From the NCBI GenBank assembly GCA_947259705.1, contig CAMYNL010000014.1, positions 36,875 to 100,874 on the forward strand: a stretch of DNA of 64,000 bases, read 5' to 3'. Below the pieces are notes generated by a model. It worked only from the letters and a program-made list of their open reading frames with translations, had not been told where the DNA came from and made no database searches. Below, one piece after another: positions 8,279 through 35,425 of this stretch (positions within the stretch are counted from its first letter, which is position 1; the number at the start of each line of letters is the position of its first letter). Position numbers and translations under genes: made by a program. Source of the stretch: an uncultured Gammaproteobacteria bacterium. GTDB lineage: Bacteria > Pseudomonadota > Gammaproteobacteria > Arenicellales > JAANXG01.

Positions 8279-8878
8279 ATGGCCGACGATCGCGTAGACA
8301 AGGGGCGCCGCCGCTTCCTCACGGCAGCGACCACCGGCGTAGGCTTGGTGGGCGGGGCATTTGCCGCAACGCCGTTCATACTCAGCATGGCACCGAGCGA
8401 GCGCGCCAAGGCTGCTGGGGCGCCGGTTGAAATCGACATCAGCAAGCTCGAAGCGGGGCAGATGATTCGCGAGGAGTGGCGCGGTATGCCGGTCTGGGTG
8501 CTGAACCGCACCCAGGACATGCTGGATCGGCTGCCGAAGATCGAGGAATGGCTCGCCGACCCCGAGTCCGCGAACAGCAGCCAACCTGAGTTCGCGATCA
8601 ACGAATGGCGCTCTCTGAAACCGGAGATTCTGGTGCTGGTGGGGATCTGCACCCATCTGGGCTGCGCGCCGGTGGAGAATTTCGCGATCGGCCCCGGATC
8701 AGGCCTGGGAGATGACTGGCCCGGCGGATTTTTCTGCCCCTGTCACGGTTCCAAGTTCGATCTCGCGGGCCGGGTCTACAAAGGTGTCCCCGCGCCGGAC
8801 AACCTTGCCGTCCCGCCATATAGATTCCTCAGCGACACCGTGATCCTGGTGGGTGAAGATGGAGGTGCTGAGGCATGA
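8279..8878 (+). CDS. petA: Ubiquinol-cytochrome c reductase Rieske subunit
   Basis: Tat motif GRRRFL; CTHLGC and CPCHGS Rieske boxes. Confidence 0.97.
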   Translation: MADDRVDKGRRRFLTAATTGVGLVGGAFAATPFILSMAPSERAKAAGAPVEIDISKLEAGQMIREEWRGMPVWVLNRTQDMLDRLPKIEEWLADPESANSSQPEFAINEWRSLKPEILVLVGICTHLGCAPVENFAIGPGSGLGDDWPGGFFCPCHGSKFDLAGRVYKGVPAPDNLAVPPYRFLSDTVILVGEDGGAEA

Positions 8879-10131
8879 GCGGTAAATTTCTGACCTGGAT
8901 CGATGACCGTTTTCCGCTGACCAAAACGTGGAACGAGCACCTCGCCCAGTACTACGCACCAAAGAACTTCAACTTCTGGTATTACTTCGGCTCGCTGGCA
9001 ATCCTCATGCTGGTGTTGCAGATAGTGACCGGTATTTTCCTGACCATGCACTACAAGCCGGATTCGAATCTGGCGTTTGCTTCGGTCGAATACATCATGC
9101 GCGACGTGCCTTGGGGCTGGTTGATGCGTTATCTCCACTCCGTCGGCGGCTCCATGTTTTTTATCGTCGTCTACCTGCACATGTTCCGGGCCCTGCTCTA
9201 CGGATCCTACCGCGAACCGCGGGAACTGCTCTGGCTTATAGGCTGCGTGATCTTCGTGGCGCTGATGGCTGAGGCCTTCATGGGCTACCTGCTGCCCTGG
9301 GGCAATATGTCGTATTGGGGCGCCCAAGTGATTATTTCCCTGTTCGGCGCTATTCCCTACATCGGGGACGGGCTGTCGGAGTGGATCCGCGGTGATTTCG
9401 TGGTCTCGGACGCCACCCTAAACCGCTTCTTCTCGCTGCACGTGGCCGCACTGCCACTGGTGTTGGTCGCGCTGGTGTTCGTGCATATCGTGGCCTTGCA
9501 CAAGGTCGGGTCCAATAATCCGGACGGCATCGAGATCAAGCAAAACAAAGATGCCAACGGTGTGCCCAAGGACGGCATTCCGTTTCACCCTTACTACACG
9601 GTCAAGGACATCGTCGGGGTCGGGGTGTTCATGATGCTGTACCTGGGGATTGTGTTTTTTGCCCCGGAATTCTTCGGTTTTTTCCTGGAGAAAGACAATT
9701 TTGCGCCGGCCAATTCGCTGCAGACGCCGCCGGATATCGTACCGCTTTGGTACTTCACCCCGTTTTATTCGATCCTGCGGGCGATCACTTACCCGCTGTT
9801 CGGCATTGACGCCAAGGTGTGGGGTGTCGTGGCCATGGGCCTGTCCATCTTCCTGTTGTTCCTGTTGCCCTGGCTGGACAGGTCACCGGTAAAGTCCATC
9901 CGATACCGCGGTCCAACCTACAAGGTGATGCTGACATTGTTTGTAGTCGCCTTCATTATCCTTGGCTATATGGGCATGAAGCACCCGGACCATACCGATC
10001 TGATCTGGTTCAAGAACGTACGCTGGGCACAGCTCGGGACCTTGGTGTACTTCGCCTTTTTCGTTTCGCTGCCGTTTTATTCGAGGCGGGAGAAAACCAA
10101 GCCGGTGCCGGAAAGGGTGACGTTCAAATGA
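8875..10131 (+). CDS. petB: Cytochrome b
   Basis: YLLPWGNMSYWGAQV, RFFSLH and PLWYF (PEWY equivalent); ATGA overlap with petA. Confidence 0.97.
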   Translation: MSGKFLTWIDDRFPLTKTWNEHLAQYYAPKNFNFWYYFGSLAILMLVLQIVTGIFLTMHYKPDSNLAFASVEYIMRDVPWGWLMRYLHSVGGSMFFIVVYLHMFRALLYGSYREPRELLWLIGCVIFVALMAEAFMGYLLPWGNMSYWGAQVIISLFGAIPYIGDGLSEWIRGDFVVSDATLNRFFSLHVAALPLVLVALVFVHIVALHKVGSNNPDGIEIKQNKDANGVPKDGIPFHPYYTVKDIVGVGVFMMLYLGIVFFAPEFFGFFLEKDNFAPANSLQTPPDIVPLWYFTPFYSILRAITYPLFGIDAKVWGVVAMGLSIFLLFLLPWLDRSPVKSIRYRGPTYKVMLTLFVVAFIILGYMGMKHPDHTDLIWFKNVRWAQLGTLVYFAFFVSLPFYSRREKTKPVPERVTFK

Positions 10132-14490: not shown

Positions 14491-14535
14491 GTTCGCCGTC
14501 AATCCTGATGCCCCATGCTTCGGCACTTGCTATAG

Positions 14536-15462
<927 letters not shown>

Positions 15463-15517
15463 GCCTCGTTCCCGCGCAAGGCGGGCGCGCCGCGGCGCCG
15501 GGAAATACTGCCATTGA

Positions 15518-15531
15518 TTGATCCAGGTCAA
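15518..15531. promoter_or_regulatory. FNR/DNR-type box upstream of ubiU
   Basis: TTGAT-CCAG-GTCAA; -10-like TATGTT at 15554-15559. Confidence 0.78.
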
Positions 15532-15724: not shown

Positions 15725-16720
15725 TTGGAACTAGTCTGTCCGGCGGGCAACCTGCCGTCACTGAAGATCGCCGTCGACAATGGTGCCGACGCGGTGTATT
15801 TCGGTTTCCGCGACGATACCAACGCTCGCCATTTTGCCGGCCTCAACTTCAATGACCGCAGCGCGGCGCGGGGAATGGAGTACGCACGGGCCCACGGCGT
15901 AAAGTTGTTCGTGGCCATTAACACCTATCCGCAACCATCGGGGTGGCCGCGCTGGACGGCGGCCGTGGACCGTACCGCGGAGCTCGGTGCGGACGCCCTC
16001 ATTGCTGCCGACATCGGCGTAATGGATTATGCGTCGCGGCGACATCCGCGTCTGCCCCTGCATCTGTCGGTGCAGGGTTCGGCCACCAGCCACGAGGCGA
16101 TCCGGTTCTACGCCGAACGATTCGGCATCAAGCGGGCCGTGCTGCCGCGGGTGTTGTCCATCAGGCAGGTGACCCAGGTCGTCGGCAACAGCCCGGTCCC
16201 GATCGAGGTATTCGGTTTTGGCAGCCTGTGTGTAATGGTGGAGGGCCGCTGCCTGCTGTCATCCTACGTCACTGGGAAATCACCGAACACCTATGGTGCT
16301 TGTTCACCCGCCAGCGCGGTGCGCTGGCAGGAAACTGCCACGGCCATGGAAACGCGCCTCAACGGGGTGTTGATCGATCAGTTCGACAGGGACGAAAGCG
16401 CCGGTTATCCAACTGTCTGCAAGGGCCGGTTCCGGGTCCGTGGAAACGTCTACTACGCGATCGAAGAACCCACCAGCCTGAATACGCTTTCCCTCTTGCC
16501 GCAGCTGCAGAAGATGGGGGTCTCGGCCATCAAGATAGAGGGAAGACAGCGAAATCCGGCCTACGTAGGGCGGGTCGCAAGAGTGATGAGGGCGGCGCTG
16601 GACGAGTGCCGTAGAGACCCCGACGGTTTCTCCCCCCGCGCCGAATGGCTGTCAGAGCTGGGCCAGGTAGCCGAGGGCACCCAGACCACCCTCGGCGCTT
16701 TTCACCGCTCGTGGCAGTGA
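15725..16720 (+). CDS. ubiU: O2-independent ubiquinone biosynthesis protein UbiU (U32 family)
   Basis: MELVCPAGNL start; CVMVEGRCLLSSY, CS and PTVCKGRF Cys pattern; KIEGRQR. Confidence 0.9.
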   Translation: MELVCPAGNLPSLKIAVDNGADAVYFGFRDDTNARHFAGLNFNDRSAARGMEYARAHGVKLFVAINTYPQPSGWPRWTAAVDRTAELGADALIAADIGVMDYASRRHPRLPLHLSVQGSATSHEAIRFYAERFGIKRAVLPRVLSIRQVTQVVGNSPVPIEVFGFGSLCVMVEGRCLLSSYVTGKSPNTYGACSPASAVRWQETATAMETRLNGVLIDQFDRDESAGYPTVCKGRFRVRGNVYYAIEEPTSLNTLSLLPQLQKMGVSAIKIEGRQRNPAYVGRVARVMRAALDECRRDPDGFSPRAEWLSELGQVAEGTQTTLGAFHRSWQ

Positions 16721-17688
16721 CCGGCGGTACAGTCAGCAGCGCGACCGGCGCCGATGCCCACGCAGGAGCGGAGGGTGAATGCGGTGTCCGCAGGCTGGCC
16801 CTGGGCCCGGTCCTCTATCATTGGCCGCGCGACGTCATGTTCCGGTTCTACGAGACGATGGCCGACGCTCCGGTCGACGTGATCTATCTGGGCGAAGTGG
16901 TATGTTCCAAACGCCGCGCCCTAACCCAGACGGACTGGCTGGCCCTGGCCTCGGAGCTGGAGGTGGCGGGCAAGCAGGTGGTGTTGTCGACCCTGGCGCT
17001 GATCGAGGCCGGGTCGGAACTGGGCGCGGTACGAAGCATCTGCGAGAACGGCCGCTTCATGGTCGAGGCGAATGACATGTCGGCGGTGCAGATGTTGGCG
17101 GCGGCTGGTACGCCTTTTGTGACCGGCCCGGGCGTCAATATCTACAATTCATGCACCCTCGAGGTGCTCGCGCGCTGCGGGTTGAAACGCTGGGTGATGC
17201 CGGTGGAACTGTCCGGCAGCACGCTCCATGACATTCACGCCGGGCGTCCCCCTGGAGTGGAAACCGAGGTGTTCGCCTACGGCAGGCTTCCACTCGCGTA
17301 TTCCGCCCGCTGCTACACGGCCCGCGCCCGCAACCTTCCCAAGGACCAGTGCGGGTTCTGCTGTCGGGAAGATCCAGACGGCCTGTTGCTGCGCACCCGG
17401 GAAGATGAAGCGTTCCTGGTGCTCAATGGCACCCAGACGCAGTCGGCGCGGACCTTCACGCTCGCCGGTGAACTGGCGGACATTGGTGCGCAGTACTTTC
17501 GACTGAGTCCGCAGTCGCAGCACATGAGCCAGATTATCGAGTTCTTTGCCGCCCGGCTGGCCGGTGGCCAAGGGCCTGCGTGCGAGCCCGGGCGGCTGTA
17601 CCAGTACATGCCCACCGGGCCATGTAACGGTTATTGGAACGGCACGGCCGGCCTGCAGCAGCCGGCGGGGGCGTGCGGTGATGCTTGA
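16717..17688 (+). CDS. ubiV: O2-independent ubiquinone biosynthesis protein UbiV (U32 family)
   Basis: [30 protein letters not shown] and CGFCC; GTGA overlap with ubiU (start uncertain). Confidence 0.9.
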
Positions 17689-19189
17689 ACAGATTCTGCG
17701 GCAGGCAGCGGCGCGCGCGGCGCACTATTCGGACCTGCGCGGATTTGCCCGCGACCTGGAGGCTGGCGGGGACCTGCGGCGCATCCGGCTGGAGATAGAC
17801 CCGCAGCTCGAGGTGACGGAGGTCTGCTATCGCACGCTACGCGCCGGCGGCCCTGCCTTGTTGTTCGAGCGCCCCAAGGGCGCCACCATGCCTATGCTCG
17901 GCAACCTGTTCGGTGACGGGCGACGAGTGGCACAGGCGCTGGGTCTGGCATCGGTTTCGGCCATGCGTGACCTTGGGCGTGAGCTGGCTTTTCTCAAGGC
18001 GCCGGCCCTGCCCACGGGCCTGGACGATGTGGCGGACACGCTGCCCAGGTTCTCCAGGCTGGTCCATGTCAACCCGAGGCTCGTGCGGGACGCCGCGTGC
18101 CAGGAGCAGGTGATCGAGGGCGCCGACGTGGACCTTTCCCGGTTGCCGATACAGACCTGCTGGCCGGAGGACGTGGGTCCTCTCATCACCTGGGGCATGG
18201 TGGTCACCCGGGGGCCGTACAAGAAACGTCAGAATGTCGCCGTCTACCGGCAGCAGTTGATCGACCGCAACAAGGTGATCATGCGCTGGTTGCACCACCG
18301 CGGCGGCGCCATCGATTTTCGTGAATGGCGGGAGGCCCGTCCCGGCGAGGCTTTTCCCGTGGCGGTAGTCATCGGCGCCGATCCCGCCACCATCATTGCC
18401 GCGGTCGCGCCGATCCCCGATTCCCTTTCCGAGTATCAGTTCGCCGGCCTGATACGAGGTGCCAAGACCCAGTTGACGACCTGTCTGGGCAGCGACCTGC
18501 AGGTCCCGGCCGGCGCGGAGATCGTCCTCGAAGGCCATATTCATCCCGGCGACACGGCGGAGGAAGGTCCGTTCGGTGATCATACCGGCTACTACAACGC
18601 GGTCGACCGGTTCCCGGTGTTGACCGTGGACCGCATCACGCATCGCCACCAAGCCTGGTACATGAGCACTTACATGGGCCGTCCGCCCCATGATGAACCG
18701 TCGGTGCTGGCGGCCGCCCTCAACGAGATGTTCATACCATTGTTGCAGGAACAGTTCCCGGAGATCGTGGACTTCTACCTGCCCCCGGCCGGATGTTCCT
18801 ATCGCGTGGCGGTGGTCAGCATCAGGAAACGCTATCCCGGCCATGCCAAGCGGATCATGTTCGGTATATGGTCCTATCTCCGCCAGTTCACGTATACCAA
18901 GTTCGTCATCGTCGCGGACGATGACATCGACGTCCGCAACTGGGACGAGGTGATCTGGGCGCTGACCACCCGCATGGATCCCGCGCGCGACACGGTCCTG
19001 ATCGAGAATACACCCATTGATTACCTGGATTTTGCCAGTCCCAGGGCCAACCTGGGATCCAAGATGGGGTTGGACGCGACCAACAAGTGGAAAGGGGAAA
19101 CGGAGCGCGACTGGGGTCGACCGATAGAGATGTCGGCCGCGGTAAGCTGCCGCATAGACGGCCTGTGGGCAGAGCTGGGTATCGACTGA
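17681..19189 (+). CDS. ubiD: UbiD-family 4-hydroxy-3-polyprenylbenzoate decarboxylase
   Basis: [44 protein letters not shown] and [11 protein letters not shown]. Confidence 0.9.
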
Positions 19190-19192
19190 GGC

Positions 19193-19675
19193 TCAGCCGA
19201 ACAGTCGTTGATAAACAGGTAGCGAGCGCTTCAGCAGGAAGTCCAGCGGCCGCAGCAATGCAACCTCGTCCTCGTCCAGGGCGGCAAGGAAGTTCTTGAG
19301 TCCCAGTCCCAGCTCGGTGTCTCCTTCCATGTGAAGTCGGCGCTGGAAGAACAGCGTGTCGGGGTCCTCGCGCCGGGCGGCCAGCAGCAAGAAGTCATAA
19401 AGCGTGCCCTGCACCACCAGGTCCGGGTCGCCACCGGCGGCCGCCAGGGCAGTGTCGGTAACGGTCAGTAGCAGCTTGATATTGGCATCCTGTACGTCCA
19501 GCATGACGCGGCGGCCGGCAAGGAAATCCAGTTCGTCACGTGCCAGCTGCACGGCGAGGGCGTGATTCAACGCTGTCACCGCGACGGCGGCGTGGAACGA
19601 CGCCGGCACCACGGCCATGGGCAGCGCCAGCAACCGCGGCAGACGCGCGGCTTTGTGCTCGGGACGGGTCGACAT
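19193..19675 (-). CDS. ubiT: Anaerobic ubiquinone accessory factor UbiT (SCP2 domain)
   Basis: EDPDTLFFQRRLHMEGDTELGLGLKN. Confidence 0.88.
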   Translation of the reverse strand: MSTRPEHKAARLPRLLALPMAVVPASFHAAVAVTALNHALAVQLARDELDFLAGRRVMLDVQDANIKLLLTVTDTALAAAGGDPDLVVQGTLYDFLLLAARREDPDTLFFQRRLHMEGDTELGLGLKNFLAALDEDEVALLRPLDFLLKRSLPVYQRLFG

Positions 19676-19732
19676 GTTGCTTCCGATGGTCACACCAGGT
19701 TGGAGATTCTATGATATCCGGCGGCCATGCCA

Positions 19733-19746
19733 TTGACCCTGGTCAA
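19733..19746. promoter_or_regulatory. FNR/DNR-type box upstream of ubiT
   Basis: TTGAC-CCTG-GTCAA; minus-strand TAGAAT at 19706-19711. Confidence 0.82.
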
Positions 19747-19886
19747 TGTTTCGGGTGCTGTCACCAAATCCGCCACTGCAGGGTTCGCGTTCGCCGTCGT
19801 ATGGGTATACTTGGCACAACCCGGCTTGACTCGCAGACATCCTCGGTTCGGGGATCTCATCCGGGCGGCCAACGAAGGAGATTTTG

Positions 19887-20336
19887 ATGAGCCAGAGAGT
19901 GTGGAACGTTTATCTGTCCGGTGAGATCCATTCGGACTGGCGCGAGCGTATCGTGCGTGGTGTGCGGGACAGCCAATTGCCGATCGAGTTCACGTCTCCG
20001 ATTACCGATCATGATGCCAGTGACATGTGCGGCGTCGAGATTCTGGGCAGCGAAGAGAAGGAATTCTGGCGCGATCGCAAGGGCGCGGGCATTAACGCAA
20101 TCCGCACCTCCACGCTCATCCGCAAGGCCGACATCGTGGTGGTACGGTTTGGCGAGAAGTACAAGCAGTGGAATGCGGCGTTCGATGCCGGCTATGCGGC
20201 GGCGTTGGGCAAGTCGCTGATCGTTCTGCACGAGCAGAGTAACGACCATGCCCTCAAGGAGGTCGACGCGGCCGCCAGCGCCACCGCGAGGACCCCGGAA
20301 CAGGTGGCGACTATATTGTCATACGTGGTCTCCTGA
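19887..20336 (+). CDS. YtoQ-family protein (nucleoside 2-deoxyribosyltransferase-like)
   Basis: VYLSGEIHSDWRE, DHDASD, VRFGEKYKQWNAAFDAG and HALKEVDAAA. Confidence 0.85.
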   Translation: MSQRVWNVYLSGEIHSDWRERIVRGVRDSQLPIEFTSPITDHDASDMCGVEILGSEEKEFWRDRKGAGINAIRTSTLIRKADIVVVRFGEKYKQWNAAFDAGYAAALGKSLIVLHEQSNDHALKEVDAAASATARTPEQVATILSYVVS

Positions 20337-20471
20337 TTTCGCAGCGCAGCGGTGTGTCGGCACCAGCGGTGGCGAACGGCGAACGGCCGGCGGTGCTGCG
20401 GCTACAATAGAGACAGGGCTACGTTGCCCCCGTCCCCTTTAAAGGACAACACATTAACCGGAGGCAAAGAC

Positions 20472-20855
20472 ATGCGATACGTGGTTGAGACCGACAAGCC
20501 CGCCCAGCAGGCGGTAGAAGACTTGAAGGCTGCAGTCGAGCGGCATGGATTCGGCGTATTGCATGTCCACGATCTGAAGAGCACCTTTGCCAGCAAGGGC
20601 TTTGACTTCCCCAGCGAATGCCAGATCCTGGAGGTGTGCAATCCACAGCAGGCCATAAAGGTACTGAGCGAAGACATGGGCCTCAACATTGCGCTGCCGT
20701 GCCGCATCTCGGTCTACGAAGAGGCGGGGCGGACCAAGATCGGTATGGCAAAACCGACCGAGATGCTCGAAGCGCTGTCAGACTCGCCGGTGCTGAAACG
20801 AATTGCACAGGAGGTGGAGCAAAAGACCATGCAAATGATCGACGACGCCAAATAG
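20472..20855 (+). CDS. DUF302 domain protein
   Basis: GFGVLHVHDL, ILEVCNP and LPCRISVYE. Confidence 0.85.
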   Translation: MRYVVETDKPAQQAVEDLKAAVERHGFGVLHVHDLKSTFASKGFDFPSECQILEVCNPQQAIKVLSEDMGLNIALPCRISVYEEAGRTKIGMAKPTEMLEALSDSPVLKRIAQEVEQKTMQMIDDAK

Positions 20856-21044
20856 GTCGATGGATCGCGCGTTCCACCGCCGACGTGCCGAGAACAGCCG
20901 TGAGCAGGACCGGCTTCGTTTGTCGCGGCACAGTTCTTTTCCGCCAATGCGAGACGGCCGACGTCGGCCGCCCGCGGTCCGCATGCGCGGGATAGTACTC
21001 ACTGCCGCAGGAAATCGCTGCACGGAGATCCATTGGAGTTGTTC

Positions 21045-21962
21045 ATGAACAACTTGCCAAGGCCCCTCGGGAGCAGCTTGCTGGTCGCGGTGGCTGCCGG
21101 CGCAGTTGGCACGGCGATGGCCGCGCCCCCGTCTCGCGACTCTTCGCTGCAGTGGTCGTATTCGCTGACGCCGATATACCAGTGGGACGCCAAGCTGGAT
21201 CAGGGCGGCGAGTTTTCGTCCGAGCGCCTGCTCCTGCACCTGCAGGCGGAGAAGCGGTTCGGGCCCCGGATCGGTGCCGGGCTGGGGCTGCAGTATGGTT
21301 ACGAGGATTACGACTTCGACGGGGTGACCGGATTTGGCGGCGCGCGGTGGAACACCCTGAACCGTTTTTCTCTCAGCCTGCCTTTCAGCTACCGGACCGA
21401 GAGCCCCTGGCAGCTGCTGTTTTCGCCCAGCCTTGAGATATCTGCGGAGAGCGGCGCCGAAATCGATGATTCACTGGGATATGGTGCCGTCGCCGCGGCG
21501 GTCCGACGGATTGGTGCCGACCTGAGTCTCGGGTTTGGCCTGGGCGCCTTCCGACGCATTGAGAAGAGTTCCTATTTTCCGTTTATCGCCGTGCGCTGGC
21601 AGATCACCGACCGGCTCAGGCTCGCCAACCCTTTTCGTGCCGGCCCGAGTGGTCCGGCAGGCCTGGAACTTGCCCTCGACATGGGTAATGGATGGGAACT
21701 GGCAGCCGGCGGGGCATACCGCTCCTACCGTTTCCGCCTGGATAAGGACGGCGCGGTTCCCGGCGGCATCGGCGAAACCGAGCAGGTTCCGGTCTTCCTG
21801 CGCGCAAGCAAGCGGTTGCGTGCCACGCTGCGGCTCGATCTCTACATTGGCGCGGCGCTGGCCGGGAAGCTGACGCTCGAGGACGGCGACCGCCGGGAGT
21901 TGGCCAAAGACGACTTCGATACCACTCCCTTTGTGGGCGTAGCGCTGGCCGGGGAATTCTGA
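21045..21962 (+). CDS. Putative outer-membrane beta-barrel protein
   Basis: Signal peptide, alternating amphipathic strands rich in Y/F/W/G and C-terminal Phe (GVALAGEF). Confidence 0.7.
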   Translation: MNNLPRPLGSSLLVAVAAGAVGTAMAAPPSRDSSLQWSYSLTPIYQWDAKLDQGGEFSSERLLLHLQAEKRFGPRIGAGLGLQYGYEDYDFDGVTGFGGARWNTLNRFSLSLPFSYRTESPWQLLFSPSLEISAESGAEIDDSLGYGAVAAAVRRIGADLSLGFGLGAFRRIEKSSYFPFIAVRWQITDRLRLANPFRAGPSGPAGLELALDMGNGWELAAGGAYRSYRFRLDKDGAVPGGIGETEQVPVFLRASKRLRATLRLDLYIGAALAGKLTLEDGDRRELAKDDFDTTPFVGVALAGEF

Positions 21963-22065
21963 GCCACCGCCGCTGAGACACGTGGTTCACCTAACTTTTT
22001 GAAATTCCAAGCTTTTACTCACGACTGAGCAATCCCGGGGTAATCGGTCAAGACCTATAAGTATA

Positions 22066-22093
22066 TTGACATTTTCTAATATAACAATATACT
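22066..22093 (+). promoter_or_regulatory. Near-consensus sigma70 promoter
   Basis: TTGACA-N16-TATACT in an AT-rich patch upstream of the repeat-protein gene. Confidence 0.75.
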
Positions 22094-22148
22094 ACTGCTT
22101 CGACGATCCTTCCAACGACCGAACCAATCACCATTGGAGACCCTCAAC

Positions 22149-22670
22149 ATGAAACAGTGGATTATCGCTCTTATCGCCGTTGCCGGCATTAACGGTGCCG
22201 CGTGGGGCGCTGACGCGCAGCCCCCGGCACCGGATGTCACCCCGGCTTACGACTTTACCGAGTTCACCAAGATGTGGGAGCAGTTCCTTCCTACCGGACA
22301 GGGGCAGATTCCGACTGCCACGGCCATGCAGCTGAACCATCCAGGCGCCTATGCCCAGTTCATGAATCCGGCGACCTATGCCCAGTTCATGAATCCGGCG
22401 ACCTATGCCCAGTTCATGAGCCCGGCCTTCTATATGCAGTTCGCGGACATCAACAGGATGATGCAGTTCATGAATCCGGCCGCGTACGGGGTGTTCATGA
22501 ACCCGGCCAGTTATATGCCGATGATGAATCCCGGTGCCTACATGGTCTACATGAATCCGGCCTTGTACACGCAGTTCTTGAACCCGGAGGCGTACAAGAC
22601 CTTCATCGACCCGAACCTGTATACGCAGTGGCTCAATCCGGCGAGCTACAAGGTCCCGACCGGCGGCTGA
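22149..22670 (+). CDS. Secreted protein with about 12 nine-residue (M/L)NPAxYxQF repeats, rich in Met/Pro/Tyr
   Basis: GGAGA RBS, Sec-type signal MKQWIIALIAVAGINGAAWG, repeat register visible in translation, own promoter and terminator. Confidence 0.85.
   Translation: MKQWIIALIAVAGINGAAWGADAQPPAPDVTPAYDFTEFTKMWEQFLPTGQGQIPTATAMQLNHPGAYAQFMNPATYAQFMNPATYAQFMSPAFYMQFADINRMMQFMNPAAYGVFMNPASYMPMMNPGAYMVYMNPALYTQFLNPEAYKTFIDPNLYTQWLNPASYKVPTGG
22348..22428 (+). repeat. 27-bp coding tandem repeat x3
   Basis: CCTATGCCCAGTTCATGAATCCGGCGA twice exactly, then a near-exact third copy. Confidence 0.95.
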
Positions 22671-22697
22671 GCGGACACCGAAGAACATCGCTCAAGG

Positions 22698-22732
22698 AAG
22701 GGCAGGGTCCGGCAGGGCCCTGCCCTTTTTCT
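22698..22732 (+). terminator. Rho-independent terminator
   Basis: AAGGGCAGGGTCC-GGCA-GGGCCCTGCCCTT followed by a T run. Confidence 0.88.
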
Positions 22733-22808
22733 TTGCCTGCGGCCGGTGGCCAATCCCTTGGCGATGGGGTAGAAAGAGAAGCCCCCTTGCTGTACATAGG
22801 ACAGCACT

Positions 22809-23603
22809 ATGCTCGAGAACGTCAAGCAAACCAACCCGCTGATTCTGATAGCGGGCATCATTCTCATCCCTGTTACCGTGGCGGTGGTGAGCCTTTGGGT
22901 GGACACGCGCATCGACGATCGGCAGCGCACGCTGGCGCAGGATCTCCACCAGCGCCAGGAAAGCCTGGCGGTAGCCCAGACCATTGACGCCTACTTCCAG
23001 GGGGTAGGACAGGTGTTGTTGGGCGAGATGGACTCGGCGCTGCGTGATCGCATCATCGTGGCCCGCACAAATGCGCTGCTGACGCGGCTCAACCGGCCGG
23101 TGGACCGGGCCCTGATCGTACGCTTCGTGAACCAGATGCAACCGGAACTCACCAAGCGGCCCGAACGGGTGTTGGAGCGATCGGCCCAACCATACATCGA
23201 TCTCTCGGGCATCGACCTGAGCGGCACGGACCTCGCGTTCATCAACCTGTACCGCGCCGACCTGAGCGGCGCGATCCTGCGCGAGGCCAGGCTTACCTGG
23301 GCCAACCTGTCCCACGCCAATCTGCGCGGTGCCGATCTCAGCGGCGCGAGCCTGAATGGTGCCGAATTCAATGGAGCCGTGTTGACGGGGGCCAGGCTGC
23401 GTGGCGCCCGGATCGGTGGTGCCAGTTTTCGAGCTGCCAGACTGGACCGAGCGGACCTGGGCGGTGCCGACGCCACGGATTTCGAGTTCGAGGGCATCAC
23501 CACCGGGACCAGCTTCGCGGCGGCAATCCTGACCGGCGCGCGGTGGTTGGACGGGAGGTTGTGCGGGCCCGACTCCGTGGGCAGCTGCCGGGTGCCGAAG
23601 TGA
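22809..23603 (+). CDS. Membrane-anchored pentapeptide-repeat protein
   Basis: N-terminal TM helix; about 18 A(D/N)Lxx-type pentapeptides (LSGID LSGTD ... LDRAD LGGAD). Confidence 0.88.
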   Translation: MLENVKQTNPLILIAGIILIPVTVAVVSLWVDTRIDDRQRTLAQDLHQRQESLAVAQTIDAYFQGVGQVLLGEMDSALRDRIIVARTNALLTRLNRPVDRALIVRFVNQMQPELTKRPERVLERSAQPYIDLSGIDLSGTDLAFINLYRADLSGAILREARLTWANLSHANLRGADLSGASLNGAEFNGAVLTGARLRGARIGGASFRAARLDRADLGGADATDFEFEGITTGTSFAAAILTGARWLDGRLCGPDSVGSCRVPK

Positions 23604-23940
23604 GGCTCCATCAACGGCCGGCCAGCCGTCCGACAGGACGATAATCCACAGGGCGCCCGGCTGCACCCGATATTTCGGGCCGCGGGCTATATCGGGGTCT
23701 GGCGCTGCGGTGCGTCGGATGCAATGCGCCCTGATCGATTCGCGATCAAGCTTGCTGCCCTCGACCAAGGTCGAGCCCCTCACCGGTTGGTTGCCGAACG
23801 CGGCTATGCCGCGGACGATCGGGTCGCCTTGCGCACTGGCGTATGGCATGGTGTGAGCCCGAACGGCGCACCTCGCAGGTGGCCATCGGCACCTCCAGTG
23901 CGATGCGCTATGCCAGGGGGCGCCGCCCGATTGAGCATGC

Positions 23941-25020
23941 TCAGGATCCCGGGTCGGCCCGGTCCCTGAGCAGCCGCTCGACCATGTCCTCCAGCGACTT
24001 GAGCCGCTTGCGAAATTCAAAGAGCTTACGGAACACGGTAATATTGCGCGTGTATTCCCGGAACGGCTGCGGTGGCGTAGTCGCGTACATGCCGGGTTCG
24101 GGTATGTCCTCGGTGACACCACAGCGATGCACCATGACCACGTCGTCCGCAACGGTCATGTGGTCGAGCACACCGGTCTGGCCGCTGGCGATGACGCGCT
24201 TGCCGAAGCGACTCGATCCCGCTATCCCGCACTGCGCCACAAGCAGACAGTCCTCGTCGAGGAATACGTTGTGGGCGATGTGGCACAGCGCGTCGATCTT
24301 GGTGCCGCGGCCAATCCGGGTTTCGCGATAGGTACCGCGGTCGACGGTGCAGTTGGCGCTGATGACCACGTCGTCTTCCACCACCACGATGCCTTTCTGA
24401 GGAACCCGCTGCCAGTGCTTGGCCCGATCGCGGACAAACCCGAAACCGTCGGCGCCAATGACACAGCCCGGCTTCAGCCGCACTCGCTTCCCGACGCGGC
24501 AGCCACGGCCGATGAAGACCCGCGCATGGATCACGGACTCGTCGTCTATGAAGGCGTCTTCCTCGATGATTGCATTGGCCTGCACCACGCTCCGCGCTCC
24601 GAGTTGGACGCCGCGGCCGATCACTGCGTAGGCCCCCACCGTCACGGTGTCAGGGACGCTGACGGAGGGATGGATGACCGCCGTGGGATGTATGCGTGGC
24701 CACTCGGTGCAGTGCAAATCGACATCGTCGAAGTGCTGGCGCAACAAGGCGTGGGCAAGCTTGACGTCCTCCGTCACCAGTATCGCGAGATCACCGATAT
24801 CCTGCAGCTGCTGCGCCAGCTCGGGGGTGGTGACCACCGCCGCCGGGGACGCCTCCCGGATGGCGGTAAGCACGGCCTCATCGTCGACAAAAATAATATC
24901 ATTCGCGGAGAAATCATCCGCGGGCGCGAACCCCGAGATGGTCCCGTTCGGCCCCAGACTTTGCAGCAGCAAACCGGACGGGTGGAAACGTTCGTAGATT
25001 TCGGAGACTGTTATGGTCAT
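23941..25020 (-). CDS. LpxD-like UDP-3-O-acylglucosamine N-acyltransferase (hexapeptide repeats)
   Basis: IHPTAVIHP, IGADGFGFV, TVDRG, TKIDALCHIAHNV and LLVAQCGIAGS. Confidence 0.85.
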   Translation of the reverse strand: MTITVSEIYERFHPSGLLLQSLGPNGTISGFAPADDFSANDIIFVDDEAVLTAIREASPAAVVTTPELAQQLQDIGDLAILVTEDVKLAHALLRQHFDDVDLHCTEWPRIHPTAVIHPSVSVPDTVTVGAYAVIGRGVQLGARSVVQANAIIEEDAFIDDESVIHARVFIGRGCRVGKRVRLKPGCVIGADGFGFVRDRAKHWQRVPQKGIVVVEDDVVISANCTVDRGTYRETRIGRGTKIDALCHIAHNVFLDEDCLLVAQCGIAGSSRFGKRVIASGQTGVLDHMTVADDVVMVHRCGVTEDIPEPGMYATTPPQPFREYTRNITVFRKLFEFRKRLKSLEDMVERLLRDRADPGS

Positions 25021-25078
25021 CAGCCTTGCATCACGCGAGTGGAGGCCCACGGATGATAACCAGTGCCGCGACGCGGGG

Positions 25079-26356
25079 CTAGGTGGGCGGCGGCGGACTG
25101 CGGGGCGGGATCCTAAGTGTGCTTAGCAGCAGGCCGCCGGCAATGAACAGGACCAGCAAGGTCAGGATCGAGATGCGGGTGCTGTCGAAGACGACGGCGG
25201 TCCAGCCCATGAGCAGCGGGCCGATCACGGCCGCGAACTTACCGAGCAGGTTGTAGAAACCAAAGAACTCCCCCGCCGCCTCCTTGGGGATCAGATGGGC
25301 GTAGAGCGATCGGCTCAGGGCCTGCACGCCCCCCTGCACCAGCCCGATGGCCACGGCCATCGCGAAGAACTCCCAGGTCTGGTCGATGAAATAGGCCCAT
25401 ATGGTGATCCCCACATAGGCCGCGAGGCCGATGAGAATCCCCGGCTTGGCGCCGATGCGCTGGCCCAGCAGGCCAAATGCCAGCGCGGAGGGAAAGCCGA
25501 CGAACTGCACCACCAGCAGCGCCGTGACCAGGTCGGTGGCGGTAAAGCCGAGCGCGAGCCCGTAGTCAACGGCCATCCGCACCACCGTATCCACCGCATC
25601 GATATACAGCCAGTAGGCGATCAGGAACTGTACCACCACGCGGTAGCCGCGGATCTTATGGAAGGTCGTCACCAACTGGCTGAACCCTCGTCGTGCCGCA
25701 ATCGCCAGGCTTACTCGTCTCTCTTCGCCAGCCTCATGAACGAGGCGTGCGAGCGGCAGCGAGAAAACCGCCCACCACAATGCGGTAGCCAGAAAAGAAA
25801 GGCGAACGGCCTGGCTGGCGTCGGGGATGCCGAACCATCCCGGCTGGAGTGTCATCATCACGCAGCCGGCGAACAACAGGCCGCCGCCGAGGTATCCCAT
25901 GGCGTAGCCCAGCCCGGAAACCAATTCGAAGCGGTGCGCAGGCGCCACGTCGACCAGCAGGGCATCGTAGAAGATGTTGGCACCTGCAAAGCCAATCCCG
26001 GCCACGACGTAGAGCGCGACCGCGGCGGCCCACTGGCCCTCCCCAAGCAGATAGAGGCAGGAAGTGGCGGTCACGCCCAGAGCCGCGAAGATAAGCAGGA
26101 AGCGTTTTTTCAGACGTCCCTGATCGGCAATGGCACCGAGGATGGGCGCCAGAATCAACACCGCGACGCTGGCCAGTGAATTTGCCAGCCCCAGCCGGAA
26201 CGTGCTTTCGGTGACGGCGGCGCCCTCGCTCCAGTACTGCTTGAAGAATACCGGGAAGAACCCCGCAATCACGGCGGTGGCGAAGGCGGAATTGGCCCAG
26301 TCATACAGCGCCCAGGCCCAGACCTGCCGGTCACTCTCGCGGAGCAGGGTGCGCAA
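25079..26356 (-). CDS. MFS transporter (UMF1/Atg22-like)
   Basis: WAWALYDWANSAF, IFYDALL, LIPKEAAGEFFGFYNLLGKF; about 12 TM segments. Confidence 0.88.
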   Translation of the reverse strand: MRTLLRESDRQVWAWALYDWANSAFATAVIAGFFPVFFKQYWSEGAAVTESTFRLGLANSLASVAVLILAPILGAIADQGRLKKRFLLIFAALGVTATSCLYLLGEGQWAAAVALYVVAGIGFAGANIFYDALLVDVAPAHRFELVSGLGYAMGYLGGGLLFAGCVMMTLQPGWFGIPDASQAVRLSFLATALWWAVFSLPLARLVHEAGEERRVSLAIAARRGFSQLVTTFHKIRGYRVVVQFLIAYWLYIDAVDTVVRMAVDYGLALGFTATDLVTALLVVQFVGFPSALAFGLLGQRIGAKPGILIGLAAYVGITIWAYFIDQTWEFFAMAVAIGLVQGGVQALSRSLYAHLIPKEAAGEFFGFYNLLGKFAAVIGPLLMGWTAVVFDSTRISILTLLVLFIAGGLLLSTLRIPPRSPPPPT

Positions 26357-26410
26357 GGCCTAGGAATTCATATTGGCCCGGGAGACGGAAGGCATGTCGC
26401 CGGCCGACAT

Positions 26411-26698
26411 TCAGTCATGGGCGACGGGTTTGTCCGTGAACAGGTAATCCCGCAGTTCCTTGTCCATGGCCGGATCCCGGCGCCTGATCCATTCCAGCAC
26501 CATGGCGGCATGTTCCTTTTCCTCGTCACGGTTATGGCTCAGGATGGCGCGCAGTTCCGAATCCTTGCACGCATCGACCCGCTGGTTGTACCAGTCGATG
26601 GCCTCGAGTTCCTCCATCAGGGAAACAATGGCACGGTGCATGTCCCGGGTCTCGTCGCTCAATTCATTGATGTCTTCGTGATAACCTTCGTTTGCCAT
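26411..26698 (-). CDS. Encapsulin-associated-type ferritin-like protein (EncFtn family), 95 aa
   Basis: RAIVSLMEELEAIDWYNQR and HNRDEEKEHAAM ferroxidase motifs. Confidence 0.9.
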   Translation of the reverse strand: MANEGYHEDINELSDETRDMHRAIVSLMEELEAIDWYNQRVDACKDSELRAILSHNRDEEKEHAAMVLEWIRRRDPAMDKELRDYLFTDKPVAHD

Positions 26699-26940
26699 TT
26701 CGGGTTCTTTCGTCTTGATTGAGGAGTTGTATCTTAAACGGAAGTGAAAAGTTCGCCCAGTGGCCGGATGATTCATGGCACGGTCCGCCCGGGCACGATA
26801 TCCGGCAGCCGTCACCGACTGGTACCACTTCGACGCGGACAGCGCGGGCCTGCCATCTGGCAGGTGAGGGCCCCGCCGCTGCGACAACCGAGCGTGCGCG
26901 TATACTAGCGGGCCTCCCGACACCCAGTGCTGGATCACAC

Positions 26941-27861
26941 ATGACGACACAGAGCAAGTTTTCAGGCGTTCTGGTGCCGGTCGCCACACCTTTCACCGCG
27001 ACGCTGACACCGGATCATGCGGCGTTCGCGCGTCACTGCCGGTGGCTGTTGGATCGGGGAGTGGATGGTCTCGCGGTATTCGGTACCACCAGCGAGGCCA
27101 ATTCTCTGGCCATCGAAGAGCGGGTCGATATGCTCGATGCATTGATCGACGCGGGCGTCGCGCCGGCCATGCTGATGCCCGGCACCGGGACCTGCGCGCT
27201 GACCGATACCGTGCGCCTGACCGCTCAAGCTGTTGAACGCGGTTGTGGAGGAGTGTTGATGCTGCCGCCGTTCTACTACAAGGACGTCAGCGACGAGGGG
27301 CTTTTCGCCTATTACTCGGAGGTGATCGAGCGTGTCGGCGACGGGCGCCTGCGGGTGTACCTCTACCACATCCCGCCGATCGCCCGGGTGGGTATTTCCG
27401 CCGCGCTCATCGAGCGCCTCGTCGAGGCGTTTCCGGAAATCGTCATGGGTATCAAGGACAGTTCCGGCGACTGGCGCAATACGGCGGCCATTCTGGAACG
27501 CTTTCCGGGTTTTGCCACCTTTTCCGGTTCCGAATCACACCTGCTCGCCACTCTTCGGGGCGGGGGCGCCGGCTGTATCACCGCCACCGGTAACGTCAAT
27601 CCGGCCGGGATCCGGGAACTGTGCAAACACTGGCGCGGAGCGGACGCGGACCGAATTCAGCAGCGGGTGACCGCCATACGCAGCGTGGTCGAGGCCTTTC
27701 CCTTGATCGGCGCCACCAAGGCCATGATTGCCGATCATTACGGGGACGAATCCTGGCTCAGGGTCCGCCCGCCGCTGATGCCGCTGCCGGAGTCGCAGCT
27801 TGCTGCCCTGCGCTCGGCCTTGTCGGCGTTGGAATTCAGCATGGGCCGCGGTGGTGTCTAA
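26941..27861 (+). CDS. DapA/NAL-family aldolase of unknown substrate
   Basis: GTTSE, YLYHIP and Schiff-base GIKDSSG. Confidence 0.85.
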   Translation: MTTQSKFSGVLVPVATPFTATLTPDHAAFARHCRWLLDRGVDGLAVFGTTSEANSLAIEERVDMLDALIDAGVAPAMLMPGTGTCALTDTVRLTAQAVERGCGGVLMLPPFYYKDVSDEGLFAYYSEVIERVGDGRLRVYLYHIPPIARVGISAALIERLVEAFPEIVMGIKDSSGDWRNTAAILERFPGFATFSGSESHLLATLRGGGAGCITATGNVNPAGIRELCKHWRGADADRIQQRVTAIRSVVEAFPLIGATKAMIADHYGDESWLRVRPPLMPLPESQLAALRSALSALEFSMGRGGV

Positions 27862-31803: not shown

Positions 31804-34443
31804 ATGCTGATGCAGCCAGATGAATCCAGCCCGGCGGGTGCGGGCGCCGACAAGGCGATGAAGGATCCCGTGTGCGGCATGTCGGTGGCGCCGGACGCTG
31901 AGCTGCGAGCGGTGTACGAGGATAGGACCTATCTGTTCTGCTGCCGGACTTGCCTGGAGAAGTTCCAGGCCGATCCCGCCAGATTCGCCGCCCCGGCGGT
32001 GGTCACCACGGACCCGGTGTGCGGCATGCAGGTTTCTCCCGACAGTGAGCGGCGTTTTGCCTACCAGGGCATCACTTACCTTTTCTGCTGCGACGGTTGC
32101 ATGAAGAAATTCAGCCAATCACCGCAGGATTACCTCGACAGCGGGGACGAACAGAAGGCCGGTTCGTGCTGCGGCCACTCGGGCGGAGGTGCAAAGATCG
32201 CGCATGCAGATGCGGCGACACTGGAGCACATCTGCCCCATGTGTCCCGAGGTCAGCCAAGTCGGTCCGGGCAGCTGTCCGAGCTGCGGCATGGCGCTGGA
32301 GCCCGCGGTACAGACGGCGCCCGTGACCCGCACGGAGTATGTCTGTCCCATGCATCCGGAGGTGGTCCGGGATGAAGCGGGGGACTGCCCGCTGTGCGGC
32401 ATGGCGCTGGAGCCGCGTACGGTCGCGGTCGAGGAAGACAACCCGGAGCTGGCCGACATGACGCGGCGGCTGAAGGTTGCCGCCGCGCTGTCGCTGCCGG
32501 TGCTGGCGATCGCCATGCTGGCCGACATGGCGCCCCAGTTGCTGCCCGCCGGCGTGGCGGCGCGTACCTGGCAGTGGTTGCAGTTCCTGCTTGCCACCCC
32601 CGTGGTGTTGTGGGCGGGGCTGCCCTTCTTCCAGCGCGGCTGGCATTCCCTGCAAAATCGAAGCCTCAATATGTTCACGCTCATCGCCCTGGGCGTCGGT
32701 GTCGCCTGGCTGTACAGCTCGGTGGCGCTGCTACTGCCGCAGATCTTTCCGGATTCCATGCGCCATGGGGATGGGTCGGTGGCGGTGTACTTCGAGTCCG
32801 CCGCGGTGATCGTGACACTGGTGCTGCTGGGCCAGGTGCTGGAGTTGCGCGCCCGCAGCCGGACCAGCGCGGCGATCAGGATGCTGCTCGGTCTGGCGCC
32901 CAACACGGCGCGCGTAGTGGGGGAAGACGGTCGTGAGCGTGACCTTCCCCTGGAGCAGGTAGAGGTGGGCGACGTGTTGCGGGTGCGGCCGGGTGAGAAG
33001 GTGCCTGTTGACGGGCGGGTCACCGAGGGCGCCAGCAGCATAGACGAGTCGATGGTGACCGGGGAGTCGATCCCGGTGAGCAAGCAGGCCGGGGATGCGG
33101 TGATCGGGGCTACATTGAACGGACAGGGCAGCCTGCTGATGCGCGCCGAGCACGTGGGCGGCGACACCCTGCTGGCACAGATCGTCCAGATGGTTGGCGA
33201 AGCCCAGCGCAGCCGGGCGCCGATCCAGAAACTGGCTGATGTCGTGGCGGGTTATTTCGTTCCGGCGGTGGTGCTGGTCGCGCTGCTCGCCTTCCTGGCC
33301 TGGCTGGCGTGGGGACCTGAGCCACGCCTGGCCTATGCGGTAATCAATGCCGTGGCCGTGTTGATCATCGCCTGTCCCTGCGCCCTCGGGCTCGCCACGC
33401 CGATGTCGATCATGGTGGGCACCGGCCGGGGTGCCAGCGCCGGGGTCCTGATCAAGAATGCGGAGGCCCTGGAGGTGTTGGAGAAGGTCGACACCCTTGT
33501 CCTGGACAAGACCGGCACCCTGACCGAGGGCAGGCCGGCACTGGTGCAGGTACTCCCGGCGCCCGGCTTCGCCGCGGACGAGCTGCTGGGACTGGTGGCG
33601 GCAGTGGAGCGCGGCAGCGAGCATCCCCTGGGGGAGGCCATCCTGCGGGGTGCCGAGGAACGCGGACTCGCCATCGCCGGCGCCAAAGGTTTTCATGCCC
33701 ACAGCGGTAAAGGCGTCAGCGCCAGGGTGGCGGGGCGGACTGTTGCGCTCGGCAGTTCCGCGTTCCTGTTGGAATCCGGCATCGACACCGAATCGCTGAG
33801 TTCGCGCGCAGAGGAGTTCCGGGGCCAGGGACAGACGGTAATGTTCGCGGCGGTGGATGGCCGCCTGGCGGGGTTGTTTTGCGTATCCGATCCGATCAAG
33901 GAAACCACCGCCGAGGCGGTGACCGCGCTGCATGGCGAGGGGATCGAGCTGGTGATGCTCACCGGGGACAACCGGCGCACTGCGGATGCGGTCGCCGCCA
34001 GGTTGCGTATAGACCGCGTGGAAGCCGAGGTGTTACCCGATGAAAAGGCGCGCATCGTTATCCAGCTGCAGCAGCAGGGACGGGTGGTGGCAATGGCCGG
34101 GGACGGCATCAATGATGCCCCGGCTTTAGCCCAGGCCGACGTAGGCATTGCCATGGGTACCGGGGCCGATGTAGCCATGGAGAGCGCTGGTATCACCCTC
34201 GTGAAGGGCGACCTGCGGGGGATCGTTCGCGCCCGGCGGCTCAGCCGTGCCACCATGCGCAACATCCGGCAGAACCTGTTTTTCGCCTTCGTCTACAACT
34301 CTCTCGGCGTGCCGGTCGCGGCCGGGGTGCTGTATCCGTTTTTCGGCCTGTTGCTGTCGCCCATGATCGCCGCCGCGGCCATGAGCTTCAGTTCGGTGTC
34401 GGTGATTTCCAACGCGCTGAGACTGCGCAACATGGAGCTTTGA
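31804..34443 (+). CDS. copA: Cu(I)-translocating P1B-type ATPase with two YHS and two CPMxP metal-binding domains
   Basis: CPC, DKTGT, TGES, SEHP, GDGIND, YN and MSFSS motifs; DPVCGM twice. Confidence 0.92.
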
Positions 34444-34495
34444 ACGGCGGTCTGCGCGCGATCGCGGGCGGACCCGCTCGGACACACATGTTTGA

Positions 34496-35425
34496 ATGAG
34501 CAACACCTTGATTCGCAAGCTGAAACAAACCATAGCCCGGATTACCCTGCTGCTGTGCATGGAAGGGTCGGCAAGCGTGTTGGCGGCACCTGTGCTGGTG
34601 GACACCGAGTGGCTGGCCAGTCGCCTGGGTGCTCCGGGGCTGGTGTTAGTCGACATGGCGGCGGACGCCACCCAGTACCAACGCTTTCACCTGCCCGGTG
34701 CCGTCTACCTCCCCTACGAAGCCCTGGTTCGGCAACGCAAGGACGGGGTTGTACTGCGCGCACCCGACGAACGCCTGTTCAGGGTGCTGGGCGCATTGGG
34801 TATCAGCGCCGAGTCTCACGTGGTGGTCTACGATGACATCGGTGGCCTGCAGGCCGGCCGCTTGTTCTGGGAACTGGAGCGCGTGGGGCACGCGCGCATG
34901 TCGGTACTGAACGGTGGACTGGTGCGGTGGATACTCGAAGGGCGCAAGGTGGAATCGAGACCGCAACGGCCGCAGGCGGTGCCATATGTCCCGTCGGGCC
35001 AGGGCGCGCGCCGCAACGAGGCATCGCTGCAGGAGGTAAAGCTCGCGCGGGACCAGGACGCGGCGCTGCTGCTGGATGTCCGCACTCGGGAGGAATACCA
35101 GGGCGATCCGCGAGGCAAAGTGCCCGGCGGCCACATCCCCGGGGCCCGATGGTGGCCATGGGACCAGTCGGTGGATTTTGGCGCCGGTTTCCGGTTCAAG
35201 TCGCGGCAGGCGCTGCAACAGAGCCTGGCGGCGGTGGGCGCCGGAGACAGGCAGCAGCCCATCGTAACCTATTGCCGCACTGGGCACCGCGCCGCCCAGT
35301 CTTACCTGATCTTGCGCAGCCTCGGGTACGAGAATGTTAGGCTCTACGACGGCTCAATGGTGGAGTACGAACGCGATCGCCCGGCGCCGTTGGCGCGCGG
35401 TTCGAAACCGGGGGTGTGCTGCTGA
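34496..35425 (+). CDS. Tandem-domain rhodanese/sulfurtransferase with probable signal peptide
   Basis: HLPGAV, VVVYD, LNGGLVRW, LLDVR, GHIPGA, YCRTGHRA and LYDGSMVEY. Confidence 0.88.
   Translation: MSNTLIRKLKQTIARITLLLCMEGSASVLAAPVLVDTEWLASRLGAPGLVLVDMAADATQYQRFHLPGAVYLPYEALVRQRKDGVVLRAPDERLFRVLGALGISAESHVVVYDDIGGLQAGRLFWELERVGHARMSVLNGGLVRWILEGRKVESRPQRPQAVPYVPSGQGARRNEASLQEVKLARDQDAALLLDVRTREEYQGDPRGKVPGGHIPGARWWPWDQSVDFGAGFRFKSRQALQQSLAAVGAGDRQQPIVTYCRTGHRAAQSYLILRSLGYENVRLYDGSMVEYERDRPAPLARGSKPGVCC

Follow-up and report, generated by a model that had tools for sequence, protein, structure and literature searches.

The window analysed here, a stretch of 64,000 nucleotides from the genome of an uncultured gammaproteobacterium (the host), contains a gene at 22149-22670 (+) whose translation, a 173-aa nonapeptide-repeat protein (P0001), is a member of an undescribed family with multiple copies per genome, confined to marine Gammaproteobacteria with reverse Dsr (rDsr) sulfur oxidation. 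The family accompanies dsrAB across several lineages, and in genomes it is almost mutually exclusive with the canonical sulfur globule proteins (Sgp, PF17228). A function in the handling of zero-valent sulfur outside the cytoplasm is tentatively proposed.

Gene organization and protein layout

The coding sequence, supported by homologues, by its GC3 of 0.80 and by RNA contigs, is preceded by a sigma-70-type promoter-like site (TTGACA-16 nt-TATACT, 22066-22093, +) with 11 of 12 consensus matches, and RNA contigs start at or before 22116. A Shine-Dalgarno GGAG (22136-22139, +), identified by reading the sequence, lies 9 nt upstream of the ATG, and an intrinsic-terminator-like hairpin, GGCAGGGCCCTGCC followed by a T-run (22711-22734, +), stands where RNA depth drops past about 22700. 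On the opposite strand, the ORF at 22128-22688, though longer, is a shadow of the repeats, with a GC3 of 0.51 as against 0.80 in the + ORF, which resembles the other window genes in this respect.

Residues 1-20 of the protein (22149-22208, +; MKQWIIALIAVAGINGAAWG, followed by AD) look like a Sec/SPase-I signal with an n-h-c layout and a cut after AWG, and in the family alignment the N-terminal hydrophobic segment and the A-x-A-type site are conserved throughout. A variable linker (residues 21-61, 22209-22331, +; pLDDT 53-71) leads to twelve in-register 9-mers of the form [F/M/W]-M-N-P-x-x-Y-x-x (residues 62-169, 22332-22655, +; pLDDT 89-95). From residue 62 on, units 1-6 read LNHPGAYAQ, FMNPATYAQ (twice), FMSPAFYMQ, FADINRMMQ and FMNPAAYGV, and units 7-12 read FMNPASYMP, MMNPGAYMV, YMNPALYTQ, FLNPEAYKT, FIDPNLYTQ and WLNPASYKV; FADINRMMQ is the one degenerate unit, and the register is unbroken. 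At the DNA level a tandem repeat is limited to the first 3.3 units (27-bp period, 93% matches), and the remaining units are conserved as protein, without recent DNA duplication.

The mature part of 153 aa contains 15 Met (9.8%), no Cys, a single His and many Trp, Tyr and Phe, and its charged residues number 12 of 153 (about 8%; 8 Asp+Glu and 4 Lys+Arg); its GRAVY of -0.25 is mildly hydrophobic. The sequence-only reading, which had described a Met-rich, Cys-free protein of about twelve 9-mers with a Sec signal, few charges, a near-consensus sigma70 promoter and a terminator, is borne out on each of these points, with a signal-like N-terminus, a linker and 12 units in perfect register.

Family searches and predicted fold

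Searches of Pfam, NCBIfam and PDB sequences, with both the protein and the family profile, returned no meaningful match, in agreement with the earlier statement that the family was not recognised, and a literature search with the motif strings gave nothing relevant for the repeat. In large protein collections, 184 relatives of the + frame were found, forming 142 clusters at 50% identity; they are mostly 190-230 aa long, and every named one is annotated as "hypothetical". A contig search with the single protein detected no relatives, and a profile-based contig search detected them. Five long apparent homologues (P0122, P0158, P0168, P0173 and P0180) turned out to be low-complexity or 9-mer repeat proteins of no relation to the family and were excluded, and for a compositionally similar repeat protein (c6) homology was not demonstrable (hhalign probability 3%).

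In the alignment of the family, the conserved residues are characteristic of each slot of the repeat array; Pro and Tyr vary little or not at all, and at many positions the share of N, M, F/W and Q exceeds 90%. Such slot-specific conservation is the signature of a fold and not of low complexity. Additional FNWFDPxxW motifs flank the repeats on both sides in most members; the window copy lacks them and represents a minimal member.

AlphaFold2 modeling with 31 sequences gave a pLDDT of 74, which rose with 115 sequences to 82 overall and about 89-95 over the repeats (pTM 0.59), all five models of the latter run reaching 80-82. Each 9-mer is predicted to form one short helix of 6-8 residues, so that the repeat solenoid suggested in the sequence-only reading agrees with a high-confidence, regular helical repeat in the models. 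As judged from the sequence, Y6, F/W9 and M1' (i, i+3, i+4) would lie together on one side of the helix, with T5/Q8 on the opposite one. When two models were compared with the PDB by Foldseek, one had no match and the other only GPCR noise (E >= 3, TM about 0.12).

Distribution and co-occurrence with reverse Dsr

All named records of the family come from metagenome-assembled genomes (MAGs) of marine Gammaproteobacteria. The carriers include "Arenicellales" with the host's own family, Candidatus Poriferihabitaceae and other sponge MAGs, the Olavius algarvensis Gamma3 endosymbiont, "Chromatiales" MAGs and sediment bins. Three paralogues are present in the host genome, and carriers among the host's relatives have 1-5 matching stretches each.

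The phyletic comparison with dsr and sgp genes that had been suggested for this protein was carried out on 61 relatives of the host, 30 further carriers of other lineages and 400 evenly drawn genomes of the class. Among the relatives, the family occurs in 21 of 61, and all 21 of these carriers have DsrB above the curated cut-off; none of the 28 DsrB-negative relatives carries it, and 12 DsrB-positive relatives are without it (Fisher p = 3e-8 by genome and 0.004 by genus, both uncorrected for phylogeny). The association also holds inside genera: one genus (g12) comprises one genome with both the family and DsrB and one with neither, another (g7) two genomes with both and one with neither, and a third (g6), from the host's own family, has neither. 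Outside the relatives, DsrB was found in 29 of the 30 carriers, the exception being a "Rhodothermales" bin, to which the contig in question was probably misassigned. In the class sample, dsrAB evidence accompanies all eight carriers, of which six have a full DsrB, one a dsrB truncated at a contig end together with dsrA, and one a dsrA-type match.

The family follows Dsr and not Sox, since all eight SoxB-positive, Dsr-negative relatives are without it. SoxC is present in 4 of the 21 carriers among the relatives. SoxB and two copies of dsrAB are encoded in the host genome, and SoxC is absent from it; in organisms with SoxB and dsrAB and without SoxC, such as Allochromatium and its relatives, S0 arises as an intermediate. 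A search for fccB in the host genome did not find it. The two host dsrAB copies (C21:85733-87909 and C62:3534-5730) differ in that the second DsrB is more divergent (446 vs 550 bits), and dsrAB duplication was also observed in seven relatives (G004, G007, G009, G010, G013, G016 and G019).

Complementarity with canonical Sgp

In a six-frame search, PF17228, the profile for proteins of the SgpA-C type, was absent from the host, from 60 of the 61 relatives and from all 22 further carriers covered. The search is sensitive, since by the same procedure 52 of 401 class genomes were positive; 45 of these 52 are also DsrB-positive, so that PF17228 shows a Dsr dependence of the same kind as the repeat family. 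None of the class-sample carriers of the repeat family has PF17228 (one-sided p = 0.02 within Dsr-positive genomes). The sole relative with a canonical PF17228 gene (G009; L093 1426-1788, encoding a Gly/Tyr/Pro-rich protein of 120 aa) also carries the repeat family, which indicates that the two can coexist. The comparison with sgp showed the repeat family to be complementary to canonical Sgp, with near rather than complete mutual exclusion. About 67 of the approximately 118 DsrB-positive class genomes have neither PF17228 nor the repeat family, and thus rDsr requires neither of them.

Gene neighbourhoods

The ORFs of 79 loci were clustered and the recurrent clusters annotated, and four locus types recur. 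The Gamma3-type locus comprises a DUF255 thioredoxin, a MotA/ExbB-like cassette, the family gene, a thioredoxin-like protein, TolC-like and HlyD-like proteins and Usp. In the second type, a TlpA-like thioredoxin, a family gene, a Spy/CnrX-like Met-rich protein, another family gene and a dihaem cytochrome c follow one another. The third type begins with a cytochrome c, the FccB flavoprotein (fccAB), a rhodanese and a dihaem cytochrome, and continues after the family gene with a cytochrome c, a Met-rich CxxCH protein, a cytochrome c4 and TlpA. In the fourth type, the family gene is followed by another Met/Pro/aromatic repeat protein, for which homology to the family could not be demonstrated. 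In a tally of 126 immediate neighbours by Pfam family, thioredoxin-fold proteins lead (about 15), followed by TolC-like outer-membrane efflux proteins (OEP; 8), cytochromes c (7) and MotA/ExbB (5), and the 25 commonest families of these flanking proteins include no cop/cus/sil, multicopper-oxidase, Oxidored_molyb or Msr families.

In five genomes (G009, G024, G027, G031 and G042), the distance between family genes and fccB, soxB or dsrB is 1-40 kb, and two of the three host copies have a gene for a TlpA-like thioredoxin within 2-3 kb. The copy in the window is isolated: no sulfur gene is linked to it, and its neighbours are unrelated and otherwise housekeeping genes. Two nearby genes were considered as partners and rejected: the upstream DUF6268-like, outer-membrane-type (beta-barrel-like) gene has no conserved counterpart in the closest orthologous locus, and the DUF302 protein encoded at 20472-20855 has no signal peptide, secreted DUF302 proteins occurring in only 8 of 68 loci. 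A Pfam scan of 10 flanking ORFs (15725-26989) and 20 larger ORFs of the window found no molybdopterin oxidoreductase or Msr.

Two further sets of genes were noted in the course of this survey. In five loci (L032, L036 and L046-L048), a protein of ~180 aa (cluster c21) with MDPxxW/MNPxxM-type Met-rich repeats, a single haem-binding CxxCH motif and no Pfam match is encoded just downstream of the family gene, always with a small cytochrome c on one side and a dihaem cytochrome c4 on the other. In the host, C17:16893-21600 (locus L091) contains a cluster of several secreted low-complexity proteins, namely a 226-aa Met/Pro/aromatic repeat protein with N-terminal Cys residues, a TlpA-like thioredoxin, a 308-aa Gly/Met/Pro-rich protein and a 161-aa protein with a CxxxxxxxCP...CP motif, the latter preceding the second family paralogue, which comes last. 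This cluster could form a separate periplasmic module.

Transcription and selection

Words of a 640-bp stretch around the gene are contained in 14 RNA-labelled runs, mostly sediment metatranscriptomes. In one of them (X25), two contigs with 0-2 mismatches span 22116-22377 and 22390-22663 at a depth of 20-30. Over the gene, contig depth, which is a poor measure of expression, is about 20-30 in X25 and X26 and about 4 in X28, and in the 2.5 kb on either side RNA contig depth is 0-3. Such coverage is consistent with an abundant transcript that is short and monocistronic and begins immediately past the predicted -10 box, and the claim that the gene is monocistronic and highly expressed is supported by the metatranscriptome contigs within the limits of contig depth. 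RNA contigs are also present for the second host paralogue (contig C17). At the host dsrAB copies, RNA contigs are only short fragments conserved community-wide, for which a depth comparison is uninformative. A gene for a membrane-anchored pentapeptide-repeat protein (22809-23603, +), just past the terminator, has weak RNA coverage only.

In a strain variant from X26, the seven amino-acid changes are confined to the linker and the four changes in the repeats are without exception synonymous, which indicates that the repeats are under purifying selection. The closest relative (P0002, from an ENA contig; 209 aa, 77% identity) enters the +1 frame of the repeats after residue 116; this switch is a frameshift from an assembly error or a pseudogene copy in a related strain.

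Comparison with known systems

Sgp proteins carry a Sec signal, are repetitive with regularly spaced Pro, occur as several paralogues, have in some loci a neighbouring exporter and are "extremely hydrophobic" (PMC10386293), and the globule association of SgpD has been addressed by globule proteomics or a fluorescent fusion (PMC10386293). The repeat family resembles SgpA/B/C/D of Allochromatium vinosum in comprising small, Cys-free or Cys-poor, predicted Sec-exported proteins with several paralogues, stand-alone genes, regularly spaced Pro, many aromatics and a dsrAB-tied distribution, and an exporter adjoins some of its loci, as with Sgp. However, there is no sequence relationship between the two: PF17228 is not matched even at E <= 10, a Pfam scan of P0001 at this threshold giving two chance matches only. 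The repeat family is Met/Asn/Ala-rich, predicted to be all-helical and strictly periodic over nine residues, whereas the Sgp of G009 is a Gly/Tyr/Pro-rich protein of about 100-120 aa. The repeat protein is also larger (15-20 kDa mature) and less hydrophobic than Sgp, and its association with globules is putative.

MrpX of Azospira suillum, with 20% Met and 44% charged residues, is encoded in a yedY1Z1-mrpX operon under SigF and co-transcribed with yedYZ (PMC4436054). It is likewise a small, exported, Met-rich protein; in contrast, the repeat protein has 10% Met, few charges, ordered repeats and its own sigma-70-type promoter, and Msr genes are absent from its common neighbours and from the scanned window ORFs. 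SilE/PcoE, CusF and the Met-rich domain of CueO share with the repeat protein an enrichment in Met and aromatics and a periplasmic location, which is a predicted one in the present case. Compared with SilE/PcoE/CusF, the repeat protein matches no profile of theirs, has one His, is predicted to be folded rather than disordered and shows no metal-resistance operon context in the neighbour tally, the only metal gene being a P1B ATPase 9 kb away in the window.

Proposed function and alternatives

Reverse-Dsr sulfur oxidizers are major players in marine sediments and animal symbioses. To our knowledge, the holding and moving of extracytoplasmic S0 is known only for Chromatiaceae-type Sgp, and most of the lineages considered here lack Sgp. 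A family that is predicted to be exported, apparently highly transcribed, tied to dsrAB and complementary to Sgp is a concrete candidate for this missing step of S0 handling. We propose, with some hesitation, that the repeat protein is a periplasmic binder, coat or carrier for zero-valent sulfur, an analogue and not a homologue of Sgp; this is rated the likeliest function because of the sulfur ties of the family, its Sgp-like traits and the absence of canonical Sgp. The body of the protein, Sec-exported and Cys-free, would be a rod or solenoid of twelve Pro-capped helices of 7-8 residues, in which each 9-mer would place Tyr/Trp, Phe/Trp and one or two Met on one face, generating a thioether/aromatic ladder. 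Hydrophobic S8 or polysulfane supplied by truncated Sox or by FccAB would be bound or coated non-covalently in the periplasm, and the repeat protein may serve as the envelope of the deposit or as a carrier phase until the sulfur reaches cytoplasmic rDsr. Since the protein has no Cys, any binding of sulfur would be non-covalent, as opposed to the covalent carriers SoxY and rhodanese, and a regular surface of thioethers and aromatics is a plausible non-covalent binder of hydrophobic S8 or polysulfane. In this scheme we infer the periplasmic location, the sulfur ligand and the coat or carrier role.

The idea of a sulfur coat had already been raised from the sequence; the link to sulfur has since gained substance from the dsrAB tie, the linkage to fccB, soxB and dsr and the complementarity with Sgp, while the coating of globules itself stays conjectural. 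The high apparent in situ transcript level is a further point for a sulfur role. On the other hand, the window copy is unlinked to sulfur genes, the host is without fccB and the protein is only mildly hydrophobic; the DsrB-positive genomes that lack the family and the four carriers with SoxC also count against it, and the co-occurrence with dsrAB could reflect shared habitat or lineage.

The last possibility leads to another reading, in which the protein is specific to its lineage and has a structural role unrelated to sulfur, in the envelope or outside the cell (as part of a matrix or sheath, or associated with the outer membrane), its distribution reflecting ancestry and habitat only. The unrelated neighbours of the window copy, the confinement of the family to a few marine gammaproteobacterial lineages and the confident, regular repeat model, typical of structural proteins, would all suit such a role. 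It is nevertheless improbable: presence and absence co-vary with dsrAB even inside genera, linkage to fccB, soxB and dsr recurs in different families, and the family spans several orders with dsrAB evidence in its carriers, except for the one probably mis-binned bin. A better, though still unlikely, candidate is a periplasmic accessory of sulfur-oxidizing electron transport that does not itself bind sulfur and acts as a scaffold or holdase for partners such as c-type cytochromes, its flexible Met/aromatic surface gripping proteins and working together with the thioredoxin-like proteins encoded nearby. Protein-binding Met-rich surfaces of the SRP54 M-domain and of calmodulin offer an analogy, the dsrAB tie is equally compatible with this role, and it is consistent with the commonest neighbours (thioredoxin-fold proteins, TolC-like OEP, cytochromes c and MotA/ExbB) as well as with the Spy/CnrX-like "Metal_resist" protein found between tandem family copies in some loci. 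However, no partner is common to all locus types, the window copy is alone, and high expression together with several paralogues is easier to reconcile with a protein needed in bulk or in stoichiometric amounts than with a dedicated assembly factor.

The two remaining explanations, both derived from the Met content and both put forward in the sequence-only reading, gained no support from the neighbourhood survey, in which the common flanking families included neither cop/cus/sil nor msrPQ genes. A periplasmic Cu(I)/Ag(I) buffer acting through Met thioethers and aromatic cation-pi contacts, in the manner of SilE, PcoE, CusF and the CueO inserts, would be in keeping with 10% Met and many Trp, Tyr and Phe, with the Metal_resist-like neighbour of some loci (under the curated cut-off), with TolC/HlyD-type genes nearby in the Gamma3-type loci and with the YHS/HMBD P1B-type ATPase 9 kb downstream in the window. 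Yet the protein matches no metal-binding family in Pfam or NCBIfam and has almost no His, its Met spacing of M-x5-M-x2-M is unlike MxxM/MxM motifs, cop/cus/sil and multicopper-oxidase genes are missing from the 25 commonest neighbour families, and a strict dsrAB tie is unexpected for copper homeostasis, which makes a metal buffer very improbable. The chances of a sacrificial Met oxidant sink, in which a methionine sulfoxide reductase of the periplasm would regenerate the Met as with MrpX and YedYZ/MsrPQ, appear slimmer still. The protein is Met-rich, predicted to be exported and apparently highly expressed, and its periplasmic thioredoxin-fold neighbours could in principle feed a reductase; but its composition is not that of MrpX (about 8% charged residues and 10% Met, as against 44% and 20%), Oxidored_molyb and MsrA/B are not among the common neighbours, and the conserved, confidently folded repeats suggest that Met has a structural or binding-surface role and is not expendable.

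If the sulfur coat or carrier reading is true, it would explain how abundant uncultured marine rDsr organisms without canonical Sgp, among them sediment Arenicellales, Olavius Gamma3 and sponge symbionts, hold periplasmic S0, and the repeat family would serve as a metagenome marker gene for rDsr physiology. The wider claim, that the family represents both a new fold and, beside Sgp and without homology to it, a second class of proteins that coat or carry zero-valent sulfur, is a more doubtful one. In any case, a confident repeat architecture (pLDDT 90-95) without a PDB analogue is a worthwhile structural target.

Other features of the window

Several other genes of the window were noted. At 31804-34440 a P1B-type heavy-metal ATPase is encoded that carries two YHS domains as well as HMBD domains, and directly behind it comes the gene for a two-domain rhodanese (34496-35422); this pairing of a copper-type pump with a sulfurtransferase (31804-35422) is unusual. 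A U32 peptidase-family gene (15725-16720), UbiD (17546-19189) and an SCP2 protein (19193-19693, -) are grouped, and the set resembles genes of O2-independent ubiquinone synthesis (UbiU/V, UbiT) beside UbiD. A 333-aa ORF at 14533-15531 (-) has no Pfam match, and in a 192-aa ORF at 26411-26989 (-) an EncFtn-like (encapsulated ferritin) domain accounts for no more than the C-terminal 85 residues, the N-terminal 100 being without an assignment. Finally, a DUF255/DsbH-type thioredoxin of 659 aa, of the same family as in the Gamma3-type loci, is encoded at 4092-6068 (+), 16 kb from the repeat gene and beside uvrD and cytochrome bc1 genes (8279-10128).
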